A stretch of DNA of 64,000 nt from the NCBI RefSeq assembly GCF_029227855.1, contig NZ_CP074356.1; one strand, 5' to 3'. The position numbers were made by a program, and so were the translations under genes. The notes under the pieces were generated by a model. The model made no database searches and had not been told where the DNA came from. It worked only from the letters and a program-made list of their open reading frames with translations. This document shows, piece after piece, positions 9,537 to 64,000 of the stretch (the stretch's first letter is position 1; the number at the start of each line of letters is the position of its first letter). The DNA comes from Escherichia coli. GTDB lineage: Bacteria; Pseudomonadota; Gammaproteobacteria; Enterobacterales; Enterobacteriaceae.

Positions 9537-10248
9537 TGTGCACAGAAAACCCCCAGCTAGGCTGGGGGTTCCGGAAAGCTTTCAGCTTTGAGCCTGTTAT
9601 TAAAACCCCTTTTGATTTGTTAAAACACCTTGCGGTCTGGCAACTGCAAGTGTCAAACAAGAAATCAAAAGGGGGTCCCAATGGGGAACGAAAAGAGCTT
9701 AGCGCACACCCGATGGAACTGTAAATATCACATAGTTTTTGCGCCAAAATACCGAAGACAGGTGTTCTACAGAGAGAAGCGTAGAGCAATAGGCAGTATT
9801 TTGAGAAAGCTGTGTGAGTGGAAAAGCGTACGGATTCTGGAAGCTGAATGCTGTGCAGATCATATCCATATGCTTGTGGAGATCCCGCCTAAAATGAGCG
9901 TATCCGGGTTTATGGGATATCTGAAAGGGAAAAGCAGTCTGATGCTTTACGAGCAGTTTGGTGATTTGAAATTCAAATACAGGAACAGGGAGTTCTGGTG
10001 CAGAGGGTACTACGTCGATACAGTGGGTAAGAACACGGCGAAGATACAGGATTACACAAAGCACCAGCTTGAAGAGGATAAAATGGGAGAGCAGTTATCG
10101 ATTCCCTATCCGGGCAGCCCGTTTACGGGCCGTAAGTAACGAAGTTGGATGCAAATGTCAGATCGTGTGCGCCTGTTAGGGCGCGGCTGGTAAGAGAGCC
10201 TTATAGGCGCATTTGAAAAACCTCCGGCTATGCCGGAGGATATTTATT
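9537..10248 (+). mobile_element. IS200 copy 1 (IS200/IS605 family), ~712 bp, boundaries approximate (+/- 5 bp)
   Basis: Boundaries set by where the sequence stops matching the reverse complement of copy 2 (48334..49046). Contains a left-end hairpin CCCCCAGC-TAG-GCTGGGGG, a 152-aa tnpA, and a right-end hairpin CCTCCGGC-TAT-GCCGGAGG. No terminal inverted repeats, as expected for this family. Confidence 0.85.
9681..10139 (+). CDS. tnpA: IS200 transposase TnpA (HUH Y1 transposase), 152 aa
   Basis: ORF 9630..10139; start taken at ATG 9681 (MGNEKSLAHTRWNCKYHIVFAPKYRRQVFY...HIHMLVEIPPK), the IS200 TnpA signature. Confidence 0.9.
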   Translation: MGNEKSLAHTRWNCKYHIVFAPKYRRQVFYREKRRAIGSILRKLCEWKSVRILEAECCADHIHMLVEIPPKMSVSGFMGYLKGKSSLMLYEQFGDLKFKYRNREFWCRGYYVDTVGKNTAKIQDYTKHQLEEDKMGEQLSIPYPGSPFTGRK

Positions 10249-31419: not shown

Positions 31420-32408
31420 TTTACGTCTCTCGCCGATTAATCATCACCTGTTTGCTGCTAATTACCGCCTGTGTGGTTGCAGGTATCTGGGGATTACGCA
31501 GCGGTGCCGTCACGCTGGAAACCTCGCAGATATTCGCCGCGCTGATGGGCGATGCGCCGCGCAGTATGACGATGGTGGTCACCGAATGGCGTTTACCACG
31601 CGTGCTGATGGCGCTGTTAATTGGCGCGGCTCTGGGCGTCAGCGGCGCGATTTTTCAGTCGCTGATGCGTAACCCGCTCGGCAGCCCTGACGTAATGGGC
31701 TTTAACACCGGGGCGTGGAGCGGCGTGCTGGTGGCGATGGTGCTGTTTGGTCAGGACCTGACGGCTATCGCCCTGGCAGCAATGGTGGGCGGCATTGTCA
31801 CCTCGCTGCTGGTCTGGCTGCTTGCCTGGCGTAACGGTATCGACACCTTTCGGTTAATTATTATCGGTATCGGTGTTCGCGCCATGCTGGTGGCCTTTAA
31901 TACCTGGTTGTTGCTGAAAGCGTCTTTAGAAACGGCGCTAACAGCGGGTTTGTGGAATGCCGGATCGCTCAACGGCCTGACGTGGGCAAAAACCTCGCCT
32001 TCCGCGCCCATCATTATATTGATGCTCATTGCCGCCGCCTTACTGGTACGCCGGATGCGCTTGCTGGAAATGGGCGATGATACCGCGTGTGCGTTGGGCG
32101 TCAGCGTCGAACGTTCGCGGCTGTTAATGATGCTGGTGGCAGTGGTGCTCACCGCTGCGGCAACGGCGCTTGCCGGGCCGATTTCCTTTATTGCTTTAGT
32201 CGCGCCACACATTGCCCGGCGCATTAGCGGCACCGCTCGCTGGGGGCTGACCCAGGCGGCGCTGTGCGGGGCGTTGTTACTGCTGGCGGCCGATCTCTGC
32301 GCCCAACAACTGTTTATGCCGTATCAACTTCCGGTTGGCGTCGTTACCGTCAGCCTCGGTGGTATTTACCTTATCGTCTTGTTAATTCAGGAGTCTCGCA
32401 AAAAATGA
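31416..32408 (+). CDS. fepG: Ferric-enterobactin ABC transporter permease FepG, 330 aa
   Basis: ORF track 31416..32408; ATGA start/stop overlap with fepD. Confidence 0.92.
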   Translation: MIYVSRRLIITCLLLITACVVAGIWGLRSGAVTLETSQIFAALMGDAPRSMTMVVTEWRLPRVLMALLIGAALGVSGAIFQSLMRNPLGSPDVMGFNTGAWSGVLVAMVLFGQDLTAIALAAMVGGIVTSLLVWLLAWRNGIDTFRLIIIGIGVRAMLVAFNTWLLLKASLETALTAGLWNAGSLNGLTWAKTSPSAPIIILMLIAAALLVRRMRLLEMGDDTACALGVSVERSRLLMMLVAVVLTAAATALAGPISFIALVAPHIARRISGTARWGLTQAALCGALLLLAADLCAQQLFMPYQLPVGVVTVSLGGIYLIVLLIQESRKK

Positions 32409-33220
32409 CCGAATCAGTAGCCCGTTTGCGTGGCGAACAGTTAACCCTCGGATATGGCAAATATACCGTTGCGGAAAATCTGACTGTAGAAATTCCTGAT
32501 GGTCACTTCACGGCAATTATCGGGCCAAATGGCTGCGGTAAATCCACGTTACTGCGTACTTTAAGCCGCCTGATGACGCCTGCTCACGGGCATGTCTGGC
32601 TGGATGGTGAGCACATTCAACATTACGCCAGTAAAGAGGTTGCACGCCGGATTGGCCTGTTGGCGCAAAATGCTACCACGCCGGGCGATATCACCGTGCA
32701 GGAGCTGGTGGCGCGTGGACGTTACCCGCATCAACCGCTGTTTACCCGCTGGCGCAAAGAGGATGAAGAAGCGGTAACGAAAGCGATGCAGGCCACGGGA
32801 ATCACTCATCTGGCAGATCAAAGCGTGGATACCCTTTCTGGCGGACAACGCCAGCGAGCGTGGATAGCAATGGTGCTGGCCCAGGAAACGGCAATTATGC
32901 TGCTCGATGAACCAACGACCTGGCTGGATATCAGTCATCAGATTGATTTGCTGGAACTGTTAAGCGAACTGAACCGCGAGAAAGGCTATACCCTGGCGGC
33001 GGTGCTGCACGATCTTAATCAGGCCTGTCGTTACGCCAGCCATTTGATTGCATTGCGGGAAGGGAAAATTGTTGCTCAGGGAGCGCCGAAAGAGATTGTC
33101 ACTGCTGAATTGATCGAGCGCATTTATGGTCTGCGCTGCATGATAATTGACGATCCGGTTGCCGGAACGCCGCTCGTGGTGCCGCTCGGACGAACGGCAC
33201 CTTCAACCGCAAATAGTTAA
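32405..33220 (+). CDS. fepC: Ferric-enterobactin ABC transporter ATPase FepC, 271 aa
   Basis: ORF 32264..33220; start taken at ATG 32405 (MTESVARLRGEQLTLGYGKY...); Walker A GPNGCGKST and LSGGQRQR signature; ATGA overlap with fepG. Confidence 0.92.
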   Translation: MTESVARLRGEQLTLGYGKYTVAENLTVEIPDGHFTAIIGPNGCGKSTLLRTLSRLMTPAHGHVWLDGEHIQHYASKEVARRIGLLAQNATTPGDITVQELVARGRYPHQPLFTRWRKEDEEAVTKAMQATGITHLADQSVDTLSGGQRQRAWIAMVLAQETAIMLLDEPTTWLDISHQIDLLELLSELNREKGYTLAAVLHDLNQACRYASHLIALREGKIVAQGAPKEIVTAELIERIYGLRCMIIDDPVAGTPLVVPLGRTAPSTANS

Positions 33221-43266: not shown

Positions 43267-43419
43267 CTACTTCTTCGGTTCGTAAGCGAGAACAGCCTTA
43301 AACTCAATATTACGTTCCTTCACCGTAAACTCACACAGCGAGTCGCGGACCAGAAGCGTAAATCCCAGCACCGTTAAACACAGCACTATGACTGCCACAA
43401 GGGCATATTTCGTCAGCAT
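43267..43419 (-). CDS. hokE: Hok-family membrane toxin, copy A, 50 aa (Arg at position 25)
   Basis: ORF 43267..43455; Hok start at ATG 43419 with GGAGG Shine-Dalgarno: [50 protein letters not shown]. Confidence 0.8.
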
Positions 43420-43519
43420 GTTTATATTGCCTCCATGCGAAGAAGGGACTACCATCCGAGTTGTTCAGGTTTGGGTAGGTAGCCCCAGGGTTGATAGAAA
43501 TATCGTCCTGGGGCTTCAT
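43331..43519 (-). CDS. mok-like overlapping reading frame of hok copy A, 62 aa
   Basis: ORF track 43331..43519 ([20 protein letters not shown]...), starts upstream of hok and overlaps it out of frame, the arrangement known for mok in hok/sok loci. Confidence 0.4.
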
Positions 43520-43670
43520 CTTTCCAGACCTCAGAGTTAACCTGAAACCGGAAAGCTTCAGGCACCCGCCGTTATCTTACCCTTCCTCAGCAAAATAGCT
43601 GTTTATTTATACAGTGAATCCTGTTTCGGACTTCTGTTGGCAAAACTGATCATTGCCCTTAAAACGACAT

Positions 43671-44139
43671 CGCCCGCAGCCATTGCTGACCGCGGGCGAA
43701 AGTGTAAAGCAGGTGCCTTACCACCCTGACCTGACAACCGGATATGCGGGGATTACTCCCCGCACAACGGCTACTTCTTCGGTTCGTAAGCGAGAACAGC
43801 CTTAAACTCAATATTACGTTCCTTCACCGTAAACTCACACAGCGAGTCTCCGACCAGAAGCGTAAATCCCAGTACCGTCAAACACAGCACTATGACTGCC
43901 ACAAGGGCATATTTCGTCAGCATGTTTATATTGCCTCCATGCGAAGAAGGGACTACCATCCAAATTGTCTGGTTTGGAGTGGCAGCCCCAGGGTTGATAG
44001 AAATATCTCCTGGGGCTTCATCTTTCCAGACCTCAGAGTAAACCTGAAACCGGAAAGCTTCAGGCACCCGCCGTTATCTTACCCTTCCTCAGCAAAATGG
44101 CTGTTTATTTATACAGTGAGTCCTGTTTCGGACTTCTCA
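43671..44139 (-). other. hok/sok-type type I toxin-antitoxin locus, copy B (hokE-like), boundaries approximate
   Basis: Tandem direct repeat of copy A with a 504-bp period; same stem-loops; differs by several substitutions and small indels in the mok/leader region. Confidence 0.8.
43771..43923 (-). CDS. hokE: Hok-family membrane toxin, copy B, 50 aa (Gly at position 25)
   Basis: ORF 43771..44067; Hok start at ATG 43923 with GGAGG Shine-Dalgarno: [50 protein letters not shown]. In this copy the upstream frame is fused in-frame to hok. Confidence 0.8.
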
Positions 44140-44354
44140 CTCCTAATTTGATCAACTGAAGCTGAACCCGTTTTTTTCTGCATGCCTCAATCGTCAAAAT
44201 TCTTCGCCACCAGCCAGCTCTGCCATAACTTGTCACATTGCAAAAGTAGCCAAATTGCTTCAGTCACCATCACCAAAAAAAAGAAACATTCCAGAACTTC
44301 CGCATCTCGCCCAGCCGCTCCGACTTCTATACTGAATAGAAAACGCCAACATAA

Positions 44355-48333: not shown

Positions 48334-49046
48334 AATAAATATCCTCCGGCATAGCCGGAGGTTTTTCAAATGCGCCTATAAGGCTCTCTTACCAGCCGCG
48401 CCCTAACAGGCGCACACGATCTGACATTTGCATCCAACTTCGTTACTTACGGCCCGTAAACGGGCTGCCCGGATAGGGAATCGATAACTGCTCTCCCATT
48501 TTATCCTCTTCAAGCTGGTGCTTTATGTAATCCTGTATCTTCGCCGTGTTCTTACCCACTGTATCGACGTAGTACCCTCTGCACCAGAACTCCCTGTTCC
48601 TGTATTTGAATTTCAAATCACCAAACTGCTCGTAAAGCATCAGACTGCTTTTCCCTTTCAGATATCCCATAAACCCGGATACGCTCATTTTGGGCGGGAT
48701 CTCCACAAGCATATGGATATGATCTGCACAGCATTCAGCTTCCAGAATCCGTACGCTTTTCCACTCACACAGCTTTCTCAAAATACTGCCTATTGCTCTA
48801 CGCTTCTCTCTGTAGAACACCTGTCTTCGGTATTTTGGCGCAAAAACTATGTGATATTTACAGTTCCATCGGGTGTGCGCTAAGCTCTTTTCGTTCCCCA
48901 TTGGGACCCCCTTTTGATTTCTTGTTTGACACTTGCAGTTGCCAGACCGCAAAGTGTTTTAACAAATCAAAAGGGGTTTTAATAACTGGCTCAAAGCTGA
49001 AAGCTTTCCGGAACCCCCAGCCTAGCTGGGGGTTTTCTGTGCACAA
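48334..49046 (-). mobile_element. IS200 copy 2 (IS200/IS605 family), ~713 bp, inverted relative to copy 1; boundaries approximate
   Basis: Reverse complement matches copy 1 over its full length; I saw one mismatch in the noncoding left part plus one TnpA codon difference. Begins 3 bp after the ybdG stop; its other end abuts the pheP terminator hairpin. Confidence 0.85.
48443..48901 (-). CDS. tnpA: IS200 transposase TnpA, 152 aa
   Basis: ORF 48443..48952; start taken at the ATG at 48901 (MGNEKSLAHTRWNCKYHIVFAPKYRR...); differs from copy 1 at one residue (Ile versus Thr in ...KIQDY[I/T]KHQ...). Confidence 0.9.
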   Translation of the reverse strand: MGNEKSLAHTRWNCKYHIVFAPKYRRQVFYREKRRAIGSILRKLCEWKSVRILEAECCADHIHMLVEIPPKMSVSGFMGYLKGKSSLMLYEQFGDLKFKYRNREFWCRGYYVDTVGKNTAKIQDYIKHQLEEDKMGEQLSIPYPGSPFTGRK

Positions 49047-56876: not shown

Positions 56877-57560
56877 ATGAAACTGTTGATTGTCGAAGAT
56901 GAAAAGAAAACCGGAGAATACTTGACCAAAGGGTTAACCGAAGCCGGTTTTGTGGTCGATTTGGCCGACAACGGGCTGAATGGCTACCATCTGGCGATGA
57001 CCGGAGATTATGATCTGATAATCCTCGATATTATGCTGCCGGACGTGAACGGCTGGGATATCGTGCGCATGTTGCGTTCCGCCAATAAAGGGATGCCGAT
57101 TCTGTTGCTTACCGCGCTTGGTACCATTGAACATCGCGTCAAGGGGCTGGAGTTGGGGGCGGATGACTATCTGGTGAAGCCGTTCGCTTTTGCTGAACTG
57201 CTGGCGCGGGTGCGCACTCTACTGCGGCGCGGGGCGGCGGTAATTATCGAAAGTCAGTTTCAGGTTGCCGATCTGATGGTCGATCTCGTCAGCCGCAAAG
57301 TCACCCGCAGCGGCACGCGCATCACTCTGACCAGTAAAGAATTTACTCTGCTGGAGTTTTTCCTCCGCCATCAAGGCGAAGTGCTGCCCCGCTCGCTTAT
57401 CGCCTCGCAGGTGTGGGACATGAATTTCGACAGCGATACCAACGCCATTGATGTGGCAGTGAAGCGGCTGCGCGGCAAAATCGACAACGACTTTGAGCCG
57501 AAGCTGATTCAAACCGTGCGCGGCGTGGGTTACATGCTTGAGGTGCCGGATGGTCAGTAA
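56877..57560 (+). CDS. cusR: Copper-responsive response regulator CusR (OmpR family), 227 aa
   Basis: ORF track 56877..57560, [41 protein letters not shown]... Confidence 0.95.
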
Positions 57561-58998
57561 GCCATTTCAGCGCCCGTTTTCGCTGGCAACCCGCCTGACC
57601 TTTTTTATCAGCCTGGCCACCATCGCGGCGTTTTTCGCCTTTGCCTGGATCATGATTCACTCGGTAAAAGTGCATTTTGCTGAGCAGGATATTAATGATT
57701 TAAAAGAGATTAGCGCCACACTCAAGCGCGTTCTTAATCATCCCGAAGAGACACAAGCCCGACGCTTAATGACGCTGGAAGATATCGTCAGTGGTTATTC
57801 CAATGTGTTGATTTCCCTGGCAGATAGCCAGGGTAAAACGGTGTATCACTCCCCCGGTGCGCCGGATATCCGCGAGTTTACGCGTGACGCCATACCCGAT
57901 AAAGACACGCGGGGCGGCGAGGTGTATCTCCTTTCCGGCCCGACGATTATGATGCCGGGCCACGGTCACGGGCATATGGAACACAGCAACTGGCGGATGA
58001 TTAACTTGCCGGTTGGCCCGTTGGTGGACGGCAAACCGATTTATACGCTCTACATCGCGCTTTCGATCGATTTTCATCTTCATTACATAAATGATTTGAT
58101 GAATAAACTTATTATGACCGCATCGATCATCAGCATCCTGATCGTCTTTATCGTGCTGTTGGCGGTACATAAAGGTCACGCACCGATCCGCAGCGTCAGC
58201 CGTCAAATCCAGAACATTACCTCGAAAGATCTCGACGTTCGCCTTGACCCGCAGACCGTGCCGATTGAGCTGGAACAGCTGGTACTGTCGTTCAACCATA
58301 TGATCGAGCGTATTGAGGATGTCTTTACTCGCCAGTCCAATTTCTCAGCGGATATCGCTCACGAAATTCGTACACCAATTACGAATCTCATCACGCAAAC
58401 GGAAATCGCCCTCAGCCAGTCGCGCAGCCAGAAGGAGCTGGAAGATGTGCTCTACTCTAATCTCGAAGAGCTGACGCGAATGGCGAAAATGGTCAGCGAT
58501 ATGCTGTTTCTCGCCCAGGCCGATAACAACCAGTTAATCCCCGAAAAGAAAATGCTCAACCTGGCGGATGAAGTCGGCAAAGTGTTCGATTTTTTCGAGG
58601 CATTAGCGGAAGATCGCGGCGTGGAGTTGCGGTTTGTTGGTGACGAGTGTCAGGTTGCGGGCGATCCGCTGATGCTGCGTCGGGCGTTAAGCAACCTGCT
58701 TTCGAACGCCCTGCGTTATACGCCGCCCGGAGAGGCAATTGTTGTGCGCTGCCAGACGGTCGATCACCAGGTGCAAGTTACCGTCGAAAACCCCGGTACG
58801 CCCATTGCGCCCGAGCACTTACCGCGATTGTTTGACCGTTTCTATCGCGTTGACCCTTCCCGCCAGCGAAAAGGTGAAGGTAGCGGTATTGGGCTGGCGA
58901 TAGTGAAATCGATTGTTGTCGCGCATAAAGGCACGGTTGCGGTAACGTCAGATGCGCGGGGGACAAGGTTTGTGATTATGCTGCCGGAGAGAGAGTGA
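57550..58998 (+). CDS. cusS: Copper/silver sensor histidine kinase CusS, 482 aa
   Basis: ORF 57538..58998; start taken at ATG 57550 ([29 protein letters not shown]...), overlapping the cusR stop; H-box [10 protein letters not shown]. Confidence 0.93.
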
Positions 58999-59734
58999 TT
59001 ATTAAGTTCAAATTCAGGGCGTGGTGCATCACCTCCTGGTATTGTTGATCAACAAATTAGAGAAAAACTTATTAAACATATGAAATATCGAAGGCTTTTA
59101 TTTTTCAAAGTTTCACGAGATGTTTGTATATGAAACTTAGTTAAATCTGTGTTTCTTCCAATTGTAGATCACAATGCCCTTTCTAAATTTTCATCGTTAT
59201 AAACAAGCCATCTATCATATAAAGCAATGAATAATTTAATCGCGATTAATCATCATTAATTGTTATATTATTCACTCAATCTATTTATCAAGTGAATTTG
59301 ATAAATTCCTAATTTAAAATATCCACTATTGAGCCAGTATTTAACAACGTTAAGATGTGCAATGTGCAGATCATGTTATCAGGGTGGAGCGGTAGCATAT
59401 ATTTCTTATGCAATCATTCATTTTAATAATGTTAATTGGATTATTTATTGCTGTGAATAAAAATATATTATGAATATTGGTTTAACTTTGCGTTTTTGTT
59501 ACTCGTTGTGATATGCGTACCTGTCCTGAATAACGCCAAGAAACAAGAGGTTGAGCTTGTGATTATTTTTTTGACTGAACAGACACCCGTTTCTGTAAAG
59601 TAATATTTAAACAAAATTCTCACATAACCATAGCATTTTCTGTTCCTTCCCTAATAACGTCTGAAGTCGTCCCGCTTATCACATTATCCGCAGTTGTACG
59701 GTACGGATCATTATTCATTTTACTGGAGGTTGCT

Positions 59735-61636
59735 ATGTCAACCGGATTACGTTTCACACTGGAAGTGGACGGCCTGCCGCCGGATGCTTTTGCGGTGGTT
59801 TCCTTTCATCTGAACCAGTCACTCTCTTCGCTCTTTTCCCTCGATCTCTCCCTGGTCAGCCAGCAGTTTCTCTCCCTTGAATTTGCGCAGGTGCTGGACA
59901 AAATGGCCTACCTGACGATATGGCAGGGCGATGAAGTACAGCGCCGGGTGAAAGGCGTGGTGACCTGGTTTGAACTCGGGGAGAACGACAAAAACCAGAT
60001 GCTGTACAGCATGAAGGTGCACCCGCCGCTGTGGCGTGCCGGTCTGCGCCAGAACTTCCGTATCTTCCAGAACGAGGACATCAAAAGCATCCTCGGCACG
60101 ATGTTGCAGGAAAACGGGGTGACCGAATGGAGTCCGCTGTTCAGCGAGCCGCATCCTTCCCGTGAGTTTTGTGTCCAGTACGGTGAGACTGATTACGATT
60201 TCCTGTGCCGGATGGCGGCGGAGGAAGGCATCTTCTTTTATGAGGAGCATGCTTACAAAAGTACCGACCAGAGCCTGGTGCTGTGCGACACAGTCCGCCA
60301 TCTGCCCGAATCTTTTGAAATCCCATGGAACCCGAACACCCGTACCGAGGTGAGCACCCTCTGCATCAGCCAGTTCCGCTACAGCGCACAAATCCGCCCT
60401 TCTTCCGTGGTGACCAAAGACTACACCTTTAAACGCCCCGGCTGGGCCGGACGTTTTGAACAGGAAGGCCAGCACCAGGACTACCAGCGCACGCAGTATG
60501 AAGTGTATGACTACCCCGGACGTTTCAAGGGTGCCCACGGGCAGAACTTTGCCCGCTGGCAGATGGACGGCTGGCGAAACAATGCAGAAACCGCGCGGGG
60601 AATGAGTCGCTCGCCGGAGATATGGCCGGGACGACGAATTGTGCTGACGGGGCATCCGCAGGCGAACCTGAACCGGGAATGGCAGGTGGTGGCAAGTGAA
60701 CTGCACGGCGAACAGCCACAGGCGGTGCCAGGACGGCAGGGAGCGGGGACGGCGCTGGAGAACCATTTTGCGGTGATCCCGGCAGACAGAACATGGCGAC
60801 CACAGCCGTTGCTGAAACCGCTGGTCGACGGCCCGCAGAGCGCTGTCGTGACAGGACCGGCAGGCGAGGAAATCTTCTGCGACGAACATGGTCGCGTGCG
60901 GGTGAAGTTCAACTGGGACCGCTATAACCCGTCAAACCAGGACAGTTCGTGCTGGATCCGTGTGGCACAGGCGTGGGCAGGCACCGGTTTTGGCCACCTG
61001 GCGATACCGCGTGTGGGTCAGGAGGTGATTGTAGACTTCCTCAACGGCGATCCGGACCAGCCGATCATTATGGGGCGCACCTACCACCAGGAAAACCGCA
61101 CCCCCGGCAGCCTGCCGGGAACAAAGACGCAGATGACCATCCGCTCCAAAACGTACATGGGCAGCGGATTTAATGAGCTGAAGTTTGATGATGCGACAGG
61201 GAGAGAACAGGTCTACATCCACGCGCAGAAGAACATGGATACCGAAGTGCTCAACGACCGTACCACCACCGTAAAACACGATCACCACGAAACCGTAAAA
61301 AATGACCAGACGGTCACGATCCAGGAAGGTAACCGCCTTCTTACGGTGGAAAAAGGCCACAAGATCACCGGAGTACTGAAAGGGTCTTTATCTGAGGATG
61401 TCTTTCAGGACAGAGGCACGATTGCCGGTTCGGTGCATGTTGACGCTGTAAACAATGGTGGCGAAGGCGACGGTATACAGGCTTATACGGCGATTAAGGA
61501 AATTTTGCTGGCCGTGGAGGAAAGCAAAATTGCGCTGACGCCGGATGGCATTCAGCTACAGGTCGGGGAATCGACGGTAATCAGGCTGTCGAAGGATGGC
61601 ATCACCATCGTGGGCGGTTCTGTTTTCATCAACTGA
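59735..61636 (+). CDS. vgrG: Type VI secretion spike protein VgrG (gp27/gp5-like), 633 aa, no C-terminal effector extension
   Basis: ORF track 59735..61636 with GGAGG Shine-Dalgarno; MSTGLRFTLEVDGLPPDAFAVVSFHLNQSLSSLFSLDLSLVS... N-terminus is the VgrG signature; followed by a DUF1795 gene and a PAAR-Rhs gene. Confidence 0.85.
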   Translation: MSTGLRFTLEVDGLPPDAFAVVSFHLNQSLSSLFSLDLSLVSQQFLSLEFAQVLDKMAYLTIWQGDEVQRRVKGVVTWFELGENDKNQMLYSMKVHPPLWRAGLRQNFRIFQNEDIKSILGTMLQENGVTEWSPLFSEPHPSREFCVQYGETDYDFLCRMAAEEGIFFYEEHAYKSTDQSLVLCDTVRHLPESFEIPWNPNTRTEVSTLCISQFRYSAQIRPSSVVTKDYTFKRPGWAGRFEQEGQHQDYQRTQYEVYDYPGRFKGAHGQNFARWQMDGWRNNAETARGMSRSPEIWPGRRIVLTGHPQANLNREWQVVASELHGEQPQAVPGRQGAGTALENHFAVIPADRTWRPQPLLKPLVDGPQSAVVTGPAGEEIFCDEHGRVRVKFNWDRYNPSNQDSSCWIRVAQAWAGTGFGHLAIPRVGQEVIVDFLNGDPDQPIIMGRTYHQENRTPGSLPGTKTQMTIRSKTYMGSGFNELKFDDATGREQVYIHAQKNMDTEVLNDRTTTVKHDHHETVKNDQTVTIQEGNRLLTVEKGHKITGVLKGSLSEDVFQDRGTIAGSVHVDAVNNGGEGDGIQAYTAIKEILLAVEESKIALTPDGIQLQVGESTVIRLSKDGITIVGGSVFIN

Positions 61637-61663
61637 TTCACTCAGATTATCAGGGAGTATTTT

Positions 61664-62125
61664 ATGCAGTTCACTTTTAATGAAGGCCACATTCAACTGC
61701 CGTCTCAATGGCAGGATCAGTCAATGCAGGTCCTGGTGTCCACAGATAACAGTGGCATCAACCTGGTCATTACCCGCGAAGCCGTTCCACAGGGAACCCT
61801 GACACCAGAGCTGTACCAGGAAACGCTGGCGCTGTACCAGGGCAAACTTGATGGGTACACCGAACATGCCTGCCGGGAAATCACTCTGGCAGAGGCCCCG
61901 GCCTGGCTGCTGGATTATTCCTGGAACGGTCCGGAAGATGAGGGGAATCAGGGGCGGATTAGCCAGATAGCCGTATTCCAGCGGCGTGGAGATACGCTGC
62001 TGACCTTCACTTTCAGCACCTCCTTATCCCTGAAGAACAGTCAAAAGACGATGCTGCTGGAGGTGATAAAGAGCTTCACCCCGTTGCCACCGGAGAATGA
62101 CATCCAAAAGGACCAGCCGCGCTGA
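61664..62125 (+). CDS. DUF1795 / Eag-family (EagR-like) chaperone for a prePAAR Rhs effector, 153 aa
   Basis: ORF track 61664..62125, MQFTFNEGHIQLPSQWQDQSMQVLVSTDNSGINLVITREAV...; size, N-terminal pattern and position between vgrG and a prePAAR-Rhs gene fit Eag chaperones. Confidence 0.7.
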   Translation: MQFTFNEGHIQLPSQWQDQSMQVLVSTDNSGINLVITREAVPQGTLTPELYQETLALYQGKLDGYTEHACREITLAEAPAWLLDYSWNGPEDEGNQGRISQIAVFQRRGDTLLTFTFSTSLSLKNSQKTMLLEVIKSFTPLPPENDIQKDQPR

Positions 62126-62144
62126 CATAAACGAGGGATAACAC

Positions 62145-64000
62145 ATGAGTGAAGGACCAGGCGGGCCACAGGGAGCGACCGCAGGCGGTACGCTGGCAAT
62201 GCGAATGCTGTCACAGCAGGCGATGGTCGCCAGCCAGATGAAACGGGCAGCCAACGACAAAGCCATTGCACAGATGCTGGCATCAAAAAAGTCCGGCCCC
62301 CCCGCCGCCAGGCTGGGCGATGAAATTCAGCACAAGAGTTTTTTGGGGGCGCTGGCAGGGGCCGTGCTGGGGGCGATAGTGACCATCGCAGAAGGTTGCC
62401 TGATTATGGCCGCCTGTGCCACCGGCCCTTATGCGCTGGTTCTGGTGCCTGCGCTGATGTATGCCAGCTATAAGGCGAGTGATTATGTGGAGGAGAAACA
62501 GAACCAGCTTGAATCATGGATAAACAGCTTTTGTGACACGGACGGCGCCATCAATACCGGTTCTGAAAATGTAAACATTAACGGAAAGCCCGCTGCCAGG
62601 GCCGCCGTCACCCTTCCCCCTCCTCCCCCACCTGGAGCAATACCTGAAATCCCACAGGGGGAACCCTCATGGGGTGATATTGCCACTGACCTGCTTGAAT
62701 CGGCAGCGGAAAAAGCAGTACCACTGGCGAAGGCCTGGGGGAACGCTGTTATCACCCTGACGGACAGCAATGCCGGTTTTATGGATCGCGTCAGCGCCGG
62801 CGCATCGCTTCTGTTTCCCGCCGGTCCGGTATTAATGGAGTTTGCCACCATGGTGGGCGGGCGTGGCGAAATCAAAAAAGATGTGGATTTCCCGGAAGCC
62901 GGTGAGGACACGGCGCTCTGCGACAAGGAGAACAAACCACCGAGGATAGCCCAGGGCAGCAGCAACGTCTTTATCAACAATCAGCCCGCCGCGCGCAAGG
63001 GCGACAAACTGGAGTGCAGCGCGGCAATCGTGGAAGGTTCGCCGGACGTCTTTATTGGCGGTGAACAGGTGACCTATCTGGATATCCAGCCAGAGTTCCC
63101 GCCGTGGCAGAGAATGATCCTGGGGGGAATAACGATAGCCAGCTATCTTCTGCCGCCAGCGGGACTGCTGGGAAAACTGAAGAATCTGGCGAGACTCGGC
63201 AAACTGGGGAACCTGCTGGGGAAAAGCGGGAAGCTGCTGGGGGCAAAGCTCGGCGCGTTGCTGGGAAAAACAGATAAGTCGTTAAAAAGTATTGCCAATA
63301 AAGTCATCAGATGGGTAACAGATCCTGTCGATCCGGTAACCGGCGCGTACTGCGACGAACGTACCGACTTTACGCTGGGCCAGACCCTCCCCCTCTCCTT
63401 CACCCGTTTCCACAGTTCTGTACTGCCGCTGCATGGCCTGACCGGCGTGGGCTGGAGCGACTCCTGGAGCGAATACGCCTGGGTGCGTGAACAGGGAAAC
63501 CGGGTGGATATCATCAGCCAGGGAGCCACGCTGAACTTCGCCTTCGACGGTGACAGTGATACGGCGGTTAACCCGTATCACGCCCAGTACATTCTGCGCC
63601 GCCGCGATGATTATCTGGAGCTGTTCGACAGGGATGCACTGAGCAGCCGCTTCTTTTATGACGCCTTTCCGGGAATGCGTCTGCGCCACCCGGTGACTGA
63701 CGATACCAGCGATGACCGCCTGGCACACAGCCCCAATGACCGGATGTACATGCTGGGCGGGATGAGCGACACCGCCAGCAACCGCATCACGTTTGAGCGC
63801 GACAGCCAGTACCGGATCACAGGTGTCAGTCACACCGACGGGATCCGGCTTAAACTGACGTACCACGCCAGCGGCTACCTGAAAGCCATTCACCGCACGG
63901 ATAACGGCATACAGACGCTGGCGACCTACGAACAGGATGCGCGGGGGCGGCTGACAGAAGCGGATGCGCGGCTGGACTACCACCTGTTTTATGAGTACGA
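62145..64000 (+). CDS. Rhs-family T6SS effector, N-terminal part (prePAAR motif, two TM helices, PAAR domain, start of RHS repeat core); partial, continues beyond window end
   Basis: Own translation from ATG 62145 (GAGGG Shine-Dalgarno): MSEGPGGPQG...AARLGDEIQH (prePAAR AARxxDxxxH) ...FLGALAGAVLGAIVTIAEGCLIMAACATGPYALVLVPALMYASY... PAAR-like INGKPAARA / NVFINNQPAARKGDKLECS ... RWVTDPVDPVTGAY (RHS core start); no stop before position 64000. Confidence 0.85.
   Translation, partial: MSEGPGGPQGATAGGTLAMRMLSQQAMVASQMKRAANDKAIAQMLASKKSGPPAARLGDEIQHKSFLGALAGAVLGAIVTIAEGCLIMAACATGPYALVLVPALMYASYKASDYVEEKQNQLESWINSFCDTDGAINTGSENVNINGKPAARAAVTLPPPPPPGAIPEIPQGEPSWGDIATDLLESAAEKAVPLAKAWGNAVITLTDSNAGFMDRVSAGASLLFPAGPVLMEFATMVGGRGEIKKDVDFPEAGEDTALCDKENKPPRIAQGSSNVFINNQPAARKGDKLECSAAIVEGSPDVFIGGEQVTYLDIQPEFPPWQRMILGGITIASYLLPPAGLLGKLKNLARLGKLGNLLGKSGKLLGAKLGALLGKTDKSLKSIANKVIRWVTDPVDPVTGAYCDERTDFTLGQTLPLSFTRFHSSVLPLHGLTGVGWSDSWSEYAWVREQGNRVDIISQGATLNFAFDGDSDTAVNPYHAQYILRRRDDYLELFDRDALSSRFFYDAFPGMRLRHPVTDDTSDDRLAHSPNDRMYMLGGMSDTASNRITFERDSQYRITGVSHTDGIRLKLTYHASGYLKAIHRTDNGIQTLATYEQDARGRLTEADARLDYHLFYEY

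Follow-up and report, generated by a model that had tools for sequence, protein, structure and literature searches.

Directly past cusS, at the end of a 64,000-nucleotide stretch of Escherichia coli DNA (the window), lie vgrG, eag and the 5' part of an rhs gene, i.e., a type VI secretion system (T6SS) effector module. A sequence-only reading of this stretch had described them as a GC-rich cassette of three genes for a VgrG of 633 aa, a chaperone of 153 aa and an Rhs protein. All three open reading frames (ORFs) were found as described, and hidden Markov model searches for VgrG, DUF1795, PAAR and RHS domains detected every one of them. The GC content is 56.8% for vgrG, 55.0% for eag and 60.3% for the N-terminal and core parts of rhs, compared with 52.4% for cusS. 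The remainder of the window is core chromosome and colinear with the cit-ahp-ent-fep-cus region of E. coli JNEC-KY178.

We used JNEC-KY178 (NZ_AP045174.1; extract L001) to read the 3' end of the module beyond the window. Both sequences are identical at 63,997 of 64,000 bases, with mismatches at 31732, 38856 and 46703, none of them within the island genes. The second-best genome was 98.9% identical to the last 25 kb of the window. Because of this near-identity, L001 was taken as the 3' continuation.

The island between cusS and nfrB

In K-12, nfrB lies next to cusS at a distance of 149 bp, as the sequence-only reading had stated. Homology with K-12 stops at window position 58973 (L001 20374), 25 nt before the cusS stop codon, and resumes 141 nt upstream of nfrB; cusS itself is intact. 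The island hence comprises 14,009 bp (L001 20375–34383) in place of 27 bp of K-12. In JNEC-KY178 it contains vgrG, eag and an rhs gene of 1609 codons, followed by an ORF of 174 aa and two small AT-rich ORFs. Further 3' there are a duplicated PAAR/postPAAR fragment, a 232-aa orphan, a DUF4304 gene and an ISAs1 element (H-repeat) that adjoins nfrB. Toxin and immunity genes, which had been expected 3' of the window end, were thus found there in JNEC-KY178. The prokaryotic genome annotation pipeline (PGAP) already annotates vgrG, eag and rhs, and the small island ORFs had no Pfam or NCBIfam match. A role of the island in anti-phage defence was considered and rejected, as PADLOC returned no defence match for any island protein.

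Distribution was assessed in 5426 complete E. coli genomes. The cusS-vgrG-eag-rhs5' segment is held at at least 80% by 2129 of them (about 40%), and the end of the rhs core, which belongs to clade IV (see below), is present in 2392. Proteins P0046, P0063 and P0026 of other E. coli show two further arrangements: in some strains, deletions that extend out of the island have joined the Rhs N-terminus in frame to NfrA or NfrB sequence, and a core-less protein (see below) recurs.

The AT-rich leader preceding vgrG is presumably a regulatory region and a candidate target of H-NS. Promoter-like sites and terminators in this leader were no commoner than in shuffled sequences, and an Rfam search of it gave no match.

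Features at the end of the window, with residue numbers of the encoded proteins
Feature	Position	Strand	Remarks
cusS	57550-58998	+	intact; 52.4% GC
left island junction	58974-58998	+	within last cusS codons
AT-rich leader upstream of vgrG	58999-59734	+	736 bp, 28-33% GC (31.5% overall)
vgrG	59735-61636	+	633 aa, intact
vgrG trunk, residues 1-529	59735-61321	+	gp27-like hub, OB fold, gp5-like beta-helix
vgrG cargo-specific C-terminal region, residues 530-633 and stop	61322-61636	+	
eag/eagR chaperone gene	61664-62125	+	153 aa, DcrB/DUF1795
rhs start	ATG 62145	+	open 618 codons to window end, no stop; cut in codon 619
rhs leader, 53 residues before prePAAR	62145-62303	+	predicted single long helix
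prePAAR motif AARLGDEIQH, residues 54-63	62304-62333	+	regex match to AARxxDxxxH
TMD1, two helices, residues ~65-110	62337-62474	+	presumed Eag-binding site
middle PAAR segment, residues 125-155	62517-62609	+	Pfam PAAR_motif 132-153 at 0.01
98-residue PAAR-splitting insertion, residues 156-253	62610-62903	+	begins Pro-rich, then helical, ends moderately hydrophobic
last PAAR segment, residues 254-310	62904-63074	+	Pfam PAAR_motif 266-310, 4e-10
postPAAR region, residues 320-392	63102-63320	+	hydrophobic helix, then Lys/Gly/Leu-rich stretch
N-terminal plug, DUF6531, residues 393-455	63321-63509	+	Pfam DUF6531 1e-12
YD-repeat shell start	63510-64000	+	TIGR01643 at residues 553-592

VgrG, the Eag chaperone and the Rhs scaffold

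VgrG scored 626 bits with TIGR03361 (cutoff 186) and matched the Pfam families Phage_GPD (1e-74), Phage_base_V (3e-15) and Gp5_trimer_C (6e-22). It aligned to Pseudomonas aeruginosa VgrG1 (4mtk) with E=2e-95 and 324 bits, and weakly, with 85 bits, to the VgrG of the Sci-1/T6SS-1 system of enteroaggregative E. coli (EAEC; 6sjl). Residues 561–633 match PDB entry 3wit, a 'Putative Vgr protein', with E=1e-37. Compared with the VgrG of a T6SS cluster at aspV in the same genome, the island VgrG is 93% identical (490/528) up to residue 529, and beyond this residue the two have no similarity. Such a pattern is to be expected if the trunk is common to both proteins and the tip varies with the cargo.

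The Eag protein covers the entire Pfam model DcrB (PF08786, the former DUF1795; 1.7e-27, model positions 1–127 of 127) and matches EagT6 structures (6xrf, 1tu1) at 1e-5. Its gene lies between the other two, the usual place for an eag gene beside a prePAAR effector, with gaps of 27 nt to vgrG and 19 nt to rhs. By analogy with SciW-Rhs1, EagT6-Tse6 and EagR-Rhs1 (PMC7773334, PMC8636562), Eag would bind and stabilise the transmembrane (TM) helices of Rhs.

The full rhs gene (L001 23546–28375) encodes 1609 aa, of which the window holds the first 618 codons. The sequence-only reading had seen a prePAAR motif, two TM helices and a PAAR domain at its N-terminus. All of these are present; however, the PAAR domain is split by an insertion, a leader of 53 residues precedes the prePAAR motif and a third hydrophobic helix follows in the postPAAR region. 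The best solved relative of the Rhs N-terminus is Rhs1(Tre23) from the VgrG-EagR-Rhs1 module of Photorhabdus laumondii (7pq5; E=3e-38), which aligns in two blocks. Both proteins share the order prePAAR, first TM domain (TMD1), PAAR, postPAAR, plug and shell as well as D-P and double-DPLGL motifs. Tre23 differs by a shorter leader, by lacking the 98-residue insertion and by its tip, an ADP-ribosyltransferase. These domain and Tre23 matches support the architecture that had been proposed, i.e., a membrane-anchored PAAR-Rhs effector with an Eag chaperone and a cognate VgrG.

Residues 54–100 match Pfam prePAAR_I (PF25799) at 6.7e-5. In an alignment of 83 sequences, A54, A55, R56, D59 and H63 are almost invariant. 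From this alignment we built an AlphaFold2 (AF2) model of the Rhs N-terminus with a mean predicted local distance difference test score (pLDDT) of 75. Hydrophobic helices were called from Kyte-Doolittle profiles. Those of TMD1, at about residues 65–90 and 93–110, reach maxima of 2.13 and 1.89; AF2 places them at 66–92 and 97–110, and the region aligns to TMD1 of Tre23. The postPAAR helix (about residues 320–343), with a peak of 1.62 at 324–343, aligns to the postPAAR region of Tre23. In Photorhabdus Rhs1, EagR binds TMD1 and postPAAR (PMC8636562). Class I prePAAR effectors (see below) have a single TM region, on the N-terminal side of PAAR. Judged by Kyte-Doolittle only, the hydrophobic elements of the island Rhs besides TMD1 are the postPAAR helix and a helix in the insertion (maximum 1.35).

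The middle PAAR segment aligns to Tre23 up to Tre23 residue 139 and was modelled with pLDDT 83–97. The last segment covers positions 53–94 of the NCBIfam PAAR model NF033420 at pLDDT above 90, and the three PAAR-forming segments are reported with pLDDT above 90. The best PDB matches of the AF2 model are PAAR proteins, 4jiw_D (probability 1.00) and 4jiv_D (probability 0.99), i.e., c1882 and VCA0105. The model therefore suggests that the PAAR cone is kept and that the insertion is an excursion from it.

To place this anatomy we used 91 representative relatives that have both anchors, prePAAR and last PAAR segment. The insertion is missing from 80 of them (88%), from Tre23 and from every solved relative. 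The spacing between prePAAR and last PAAR is 208 residues here and 80–139 in 80 of the 91; the prePAAR motif starts at residue 54 here and within the first ten residues in 71 (78%). AF2 predicts a helix at residues 13–47 of the leader (pLDDT up to 96) and, within the insertion, helices at 176–206 and 212–239, where pLDDT drops from about 70 to about 41. Two proteins, P0098 (1592 aa) and P0099, are about 48–49% identical to the island Rhs overall and carry a homologous insertion that is 38% identical, with conserved internal motifs. A C-rich tract at 62613–62632 (ccttccccctcctcccccac) encodes PPPPPP at the start of the insertion. Phase variation at this tract was rejected: the three database proteins that continue in another frame are homopolymer assembly errors, and in their source genome (L006) cusS, vgrG and rhs are all fragmented.

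The island Rhs resembles the class I prePAAR effectors, i.e., Salmonella Rhs1-SciW and Pseudomonas protegens RhsA-EagR1 (Ahmad et al. 2020, PMC7773334), in its AARxxDxxxH motif, in having a TM region ahead of PAAR, YD repeats and an adjacent Eag gene, and in the prePAAR_I match. It differs from most representatives in the longer prePAAR-to-PAAR spacing and the later motif start. It is nevertheless doubtful that leader helix and PAAR-splitting insertion set the Escherichia clade IV Rhs loading modules apart as a distinct architectural subclass of prePAAR effectors. If they did, the insertion could bind Eag or enter the membrane as a third such element, or could touch the island-specific VgrG C-terminus, and would alter chaperone stoichiometry or set VgrG-cargo specificity. 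We regard the anatomy as only mildly unusual, with a 53-aa leader helix and a 98-aa PAAR insertion that are specific to the subfamily.

The plug opens with the predicted autocleavage motif D393-P394 (VDPVTG). The corresponding motifs are D288-P289 for N-terminal cleavage in Tre23 and PVSMVTGE in TseI (PMC8636562). The full-length protein scored 228 bits with TIGR01643 over ten YD stretches and 63.7 with TIGR03696 (cutoff 32.5). Before the tip, DPLGL occurs twice, at 1444 and at 1466, with a spacing of exactly 17 residues. Photorhabdus Rhs1 undergoes Asp-Pro autocleavage at its N-terminal plug and again past a pair of DPLGL motifs that have the same 17-residue spacing (PMC8636562). With NF041261, the model for the clade I 'RHS element core protein', the island protein scored 154.5 bits where at least 2000 are required. 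By its sequence, the island Rhs is of the clade IV lineage and not of the K-12 RhsA-E type.

Toxin tip, immunity gene and tip exchange

The tip of the JNEC-KY178 protein comprises the 139 aa after the second DPLGL motif (L1470). It had no Pfam or NCBIfam match, and the CdiA-CT(EC869) family is known to have no Pfam model (PMC9990079). In the PDB it matched CdiA-CT(EC869) (7vmc_B) with E=8e-41 and 61% identity over 124 columns, or 66% over the 109 residues of the nuclease domain, which is the whole modelled toxin domain. CdiA-CT(EC869) is a tRNase of the BECR fold that cuts the acceptor stem of tRNA-Gln and tRNA-Asn on an EF-Tu:GTP:EF-Ts scaffold (PMC9071432). His216 (H1539) and His281 (H1605), which are implicated as the catalytic pair, are conserved in the tip, and all five EF-Tu contacts (Tyr220, Leu221, Gln235, Met237 and Tyr284) are kept.

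The adjacent ORF (L001 28381–28905; WP_001370340.1, 174 aa) starts 5 nt past the rhs stop codon or overlaps it and is the candidate immunity gene. Its product, again without Pfam or NCBIfam match, aligned to CdiI of the same complex (7vmc_C) with E=4e-18 and 34% identity over 123 residues. At this identity, cross-protection with CdiI(EC869) would be unlikely. Identity of this protein with RhsFI, the immunity protein of the orthologous module of enterohaemorrhagic E. coli (EHEC), was rejected since they have no BLAST similarity. PGAP labels the candidate 'RNA-binding protein', which could mislead; RhsFI is an EHEC T6SS immunity protein shown to bind RNA.

Toxin and immunity protein are hence homologous to the EC869 pair (7vmc; Jones 2017; Wang 2022, PMC9071432), although the tip rides on an Rhs/T6SS scaffold and not on CdiA/CdiB. 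It has no VENN motif and no cytoplasm-entry domain of contact-dependent inhibition (CDI), and homology to EC869 begins only at the nuclease domain, chain residues 182–306. The toxin end had been thought the part most likely to be new. This expectation did not hold, given the solved pair. Homologues of a known toxin/immunity pair thus do sit at the locus (66% and 34% identity), but the pair itself was characterised on CdiA in another strain, so that the objection of a known pair already characterised at this very locus comes close without strictly applying. A limited literature search found no characterisation of an Rhs-borne EC869-type tip. As judged from the alignments, the tip belongs to a toxin family that is known and has a solved structure, and is itself an uncharacterised member.

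The tip may, on the other hand, have diverged in activity from CdiA-CT(EC869), acting on another substrate or as an RNase independent of EF-Tu and EF-Ts. Identity to the reference toxin is just 61–66%, and on the proposed tRNA-binding surface Arg271 is replaced by Ala1594, with Lys1595 adjoining, and Arg263 by Gly. Arg271 is required for full toxicity of CdiA-CT(EC869) (PMC9071432), therefore substrate choice or efficiency may differ in the tip. Related BECR-type CdiA-CTs also vary in tRNA specificity and in their use of EF-Tu (PMC5737660, PMC9071432). Against this, the histidines and EF-Tu contacts are identical throughout, the homology spans the entire modelled domain and the two immunity proteins fall in one family. 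We consider a diverged activity unlikely.

GC content is 60% in the core, drops to 39.5% in the tip and reaches just 30.5% in the immunity gene. The tip/immunity module occurs in 135–136 of the 5426 genomes, always on Rhs. A distant-mode DNA search, which resolved Rhs-borne from cdiA-borne carriers, found a cdiA-borne homologue in 35 other E. coli genomes, with about 70% DNA identity over the toxin only. Tips on the clade IV core vary between strains. In CFSAN061763, whose scaffold differs at 19 of 1470 residues, an MPTase4 zincin tip starts exactly after DPLGL; the same tip is found as the orphan 'RhsG' tip in EHEC O157:H7 Sakai. By sampled PGAP names, the tips on this core include zincin, AHH, restriction-endonuclease-fold and unnamed types. 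For the last 1.2 kb of the core (L001 26756–27955), identity to other complete genomes does not exceed 98.0%, and the adjoining tip and immunity gene (L001 27950–28905) are 100% identical in more than 100 genomes. A unique core end beside a widely shared tip suggests that recombination has produced a mosaic where core and tip meet.

Tips at the cusS-nfrB locus differ even between strains that are 99.8% identical over the first 5.4 kb, and three bases separate the window from JNEC-KY178. The source of the window might then have another C-terminal tip, to which the tRNase assignment would not apply. The near-complete identity over 64 kb, against 98.9% over 25 kb for the next-best genome, and the core end that is unique to JNEC-KY178 make this very improbable.

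Several remnants lie 3' of the immunity gene. At L001 30655–31032 there is a second copy of Rhs residues ~238–350, i.e., of the last PAAR segment and the postPAAR helix, which looks like the relic of a second rhs with its core deleted. The 232-aa orphan rhs fragment is intact at L001 31543–32241 and is followed by the DUF4304 gene at 32253–32810 (together these would be window 70142–71409); PGAP annotates only 256 nt of the orphan, as a pseudogene. The orphan consists of a core tail with both DPLGL motifs and a tip of about 120 aa. It shares a 29-aa linker (ATCPI[IL]RQ..NLEASRAARAASNFGK) with the main tip, to which its own tip is unrelated. The orphan tip has a PD-(D/E)xK-like 'IDVVD...IESKV' motif and no Pfam, NCBIfam or PDB sequence match. 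The core-less protein of other E. coli, PAAR-DUF6531-MPTase4 with 606 aa, recurs on 31 contigs and, if functional, would represent a cage-less Rhs effector.

Delivery and relation to known modules

Neither hcp nor T6SS core genes were found within the 64-kb window, and the sequence-only reading was right in calling the island an orphan; a core cluster lies elsewhere. The T6SS apparatus in JNEC-KY178 was examined at aspV; the cluster there, at a distance of about 400 kb to the island, is complete and uninterrupted. It comprises tssB, C, E, F, G, tagH, tssJ, K, L (icmH), H, vasI, tssA, tssM, VasL, two hcp genes, vgrG and a clade I rhs. All 13 of 13 core genes are present and none is flagged as a pseudogene. 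In this cluster (NZ_AP045174.1 4001330–4008423; L003 1331–8424), vgrG is directly followed by the gene for a clade I 'RHS element core protein' of 1499 aa, with no eag between them. JNEC-KY178 thus has two ways of loading Rhs, on VgrG trunks that are nearly identical. About 10 kb from the aspV T6SS lies a lateral flagellar cluster, Flag-2, with lafA, flg, fli and flhA and a frameshifted flhB (NZ_AP045174.1 3960000–3992000; L002).

According to a preprint, aspV is the site of E. coli T6SS-2 (bioRxiv 2024.03.05.583533). Because of this location and the weak resemblance to EAEC T6SS-1 VgrG, we infer T6SS-2 as the launcher. The end of the window is thus very probably the 5' two-fifths of a vgrG1(O1)-eagR-rhsF orphan effector island that arms the T6SS-2-type apparatus at aspV.

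Photorhabdus Rhs1/Tre23, P. protegens RhsA and Salmonella Rhs1 are homologues from which a mechanism can be proposed. Eag dimers would shield the hydrophobic TMD1 and postPAAR helices in the cytoplasm of the producer, while the prePAAR motif and the two PAAR segments would fold as a cone capping the island-specific C-terminal β-helix of VgrG. The VgrG trunk would be interchangeable with that of the core-cluster VgrG, so that the loaded spike could be fired by the aspV apparatus. The YD-repeat shell would enclose the C-terminal toxin, and aspartyl autocleavage at D393-P394 together with cleavage after L1470 would free the tip in the target cell. There, the BECR-fold tRNase of CdiA-CT(EC869) type would most likely dock on domain II of EF-Tu and cut particular tRNAs in their acceptor stem; protection of the producer would come from the CdiI(EC869)-like protein encoded next to it. 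Downstream orphan tips and immunity genes may serve as a reservoir for tip replacement via recombination at the conserved core end.

Some observations, besides the arginine replacements in the tip, weigh against this reading. The Rhs N-terminus scored only 47 with NF033420, below the cutoff of 124, which we attribute to the split of the PAAR domain. The toxin end lies beyond the window end and was assigned from JNEC-KY178, which is identical over the region in question. In culture, E. coli T6SS-2 and the promoter for full-length rhsF are reported to be silent, under repression by H-NS (PMC7618764, PMC5874247). Finally, in the same preprint VgrG-O1 delivery is credited to T6SS1 and not to T6SS2 (bioRxiv 2024.03.05.583533).

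The last point raises the possibility that the loaded VgrG is fired by T6SS-1 instead of the T6SS-2-type cluster at aspV, as the preprint, which deals with Shiga toxin-producing E. coli, cites Ma et al. 2017 for VgrG-O1 in T6SS1-dependent killing. The 93% trunk identity with the aspV-cluster VgrG and the 85 bits to EAEC VgrG compared with 324 bits to P. aeruginosa VgrG1 argue otherwise. Moreover, EHEC, which has the aspV system only, retains the island (PMC7216683). We therefore hold firing by T6SS-1 to be quite improbable.

Repression bears on another explanation, in which the island is mostly silent as a weapon and serves as an everyday immunity or toxin-antitoxin-like module, its tip and immunity protein arising from sub-genic transcription inside the rhs 3' end. 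Its benefit would be protection against neighbours' toxins, or regulatory side effects, as was proposed for EHEC rhsF-rhsFI and for Salmonella orphan rhs. In the EHEC Sakai orthologue, the start of full-length rhsF is inactive and a strong internal promoter lies upstream of the autoprotease site (PMC7618764); T6SS-2 is repressed as described above, and the vgrG leader with its 28–33% GC is typical of H-NS-bound DNA. In JNEC-KY178, however, vgrG, eag, the rhs for 1609 aa and the 13 T6SS core genes are all intact, which argues for selection on delivery. A consensus scan upstream of the tip saw no promoter-like site, which is weak evidence, and Ma et al. 2017, as far as reported in PMC6730261, found T6SS-dependent killing by the same type of module. 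A mainly silent island thus appears rather unlikely, and it would be compatible with delivery by the aspV apparatus.

The sequence-only reading had implied that the module was new. It is already known: the locus was catalogued in 2009 (PMC2935791) and its EHEC orthologues carry the names vgrG1, eagR and rhsF (PMC7216683, PMC7618764). Among the rhs loci of Jackson et al. 2009, the nfrB-cusS interval is 'position 4' and the only one of clade IV in E. coli; these authors illustrated the displacement of C-terminal tips with it (PMC2935791). The island agrees with position 4 in its flanks nfrB and cusS, a GC-rich core, an AT-rich tip and dissociated downstream tips. That work is earlier than the concepts of T6SS, Eag and prePAAR, and toxin activities were not assigned there.

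In EHEC O157:H7, S-loop 44 holds vgrG1 (z0707/ECs_0607), eagR (z0706/ECs_0606), rhsF (z0705/ECs_0605), rhsFI (ECs_0604) and rhsG (PMC7216683, PMC7618764). In Sakai, ECs_0603 (rhsG) and ECs_0602 (ISEc1) complete the cusS-nfrB interval after ECs_0607 (vgrG), 0606 (eagR), 0605 (rhsF) and 0604 (rhsFI). Site and gene order are the same as in the island, and both have an ISAs1/ISEc1 element at the nfrB end and a downstream orphan rhs fragment. The island VgrG is 97.8%, Eag 98.7% and Rhs, over residues 1–1477, 95.7% identical to ECs_0607, ECs_0606 and ECs_0605, respectively. The difference lies at the end of rhs. The EHEC RhsF-CT has a BpuSI/FokI-like fold and its 135-aa RhsFI binds small RNAs, whereas the island has the EC869-type tRNase and the 174-aa CdiI-like protein; tips and immunities are unrelated.

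The vgrGO1-eagR-PAAR-Rhs-CT modules of Ma et al. 2017, as presented in PMC6730261, have the same architecture as the island. According to that account, vgrGO1 and eagR were needed for T6SS delivery of E. coli Rhs-CTs, including one with an MPTase4 tip. This tip, Rhs-CT1, is carried at the cusS-nfrB locus by sibling genomes of the CFSAN061763 type described above.

Elsewhere in the window, in otherwise core chromosome, there are two IS200C tnpA copies, one between ybdG and pheP (~48443–48901; L001 9844–10302), which is missing in CFSAN061763, and one between rna and rnk (~9681–10139). The hokE type I toxin locus is tandemly duplicated between entD and ybdK (~43267–44159; L001 4668–5560), and both copies are overlapped by a degenerate ORF.

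The island, a catalogued and PGAP-annotated accessory locus that has in part been studied by experiment, carries little weight as a discovery, and leader and PAAR insertion pose a small question on effector loading. It is, however, a clean example of a polymorphic toxin, i.e., one VgrG-Eag-Rhs scaffold that about 40% of strains have in the same place, with interchangeable tips of the MPTase4, AHH, restriction-endonuclease-fold, RhsF-CT and EC869-tRNase types. The EF-Tu-dependent EC869-type tRNase, known from CDI, is also found on a T6SS Rhs in 135 complete genomes. Rhs-borne and CdiA-borne EC869-type toxins would hence allow a direct comparison of one toxin family on two delivery routes within one species.

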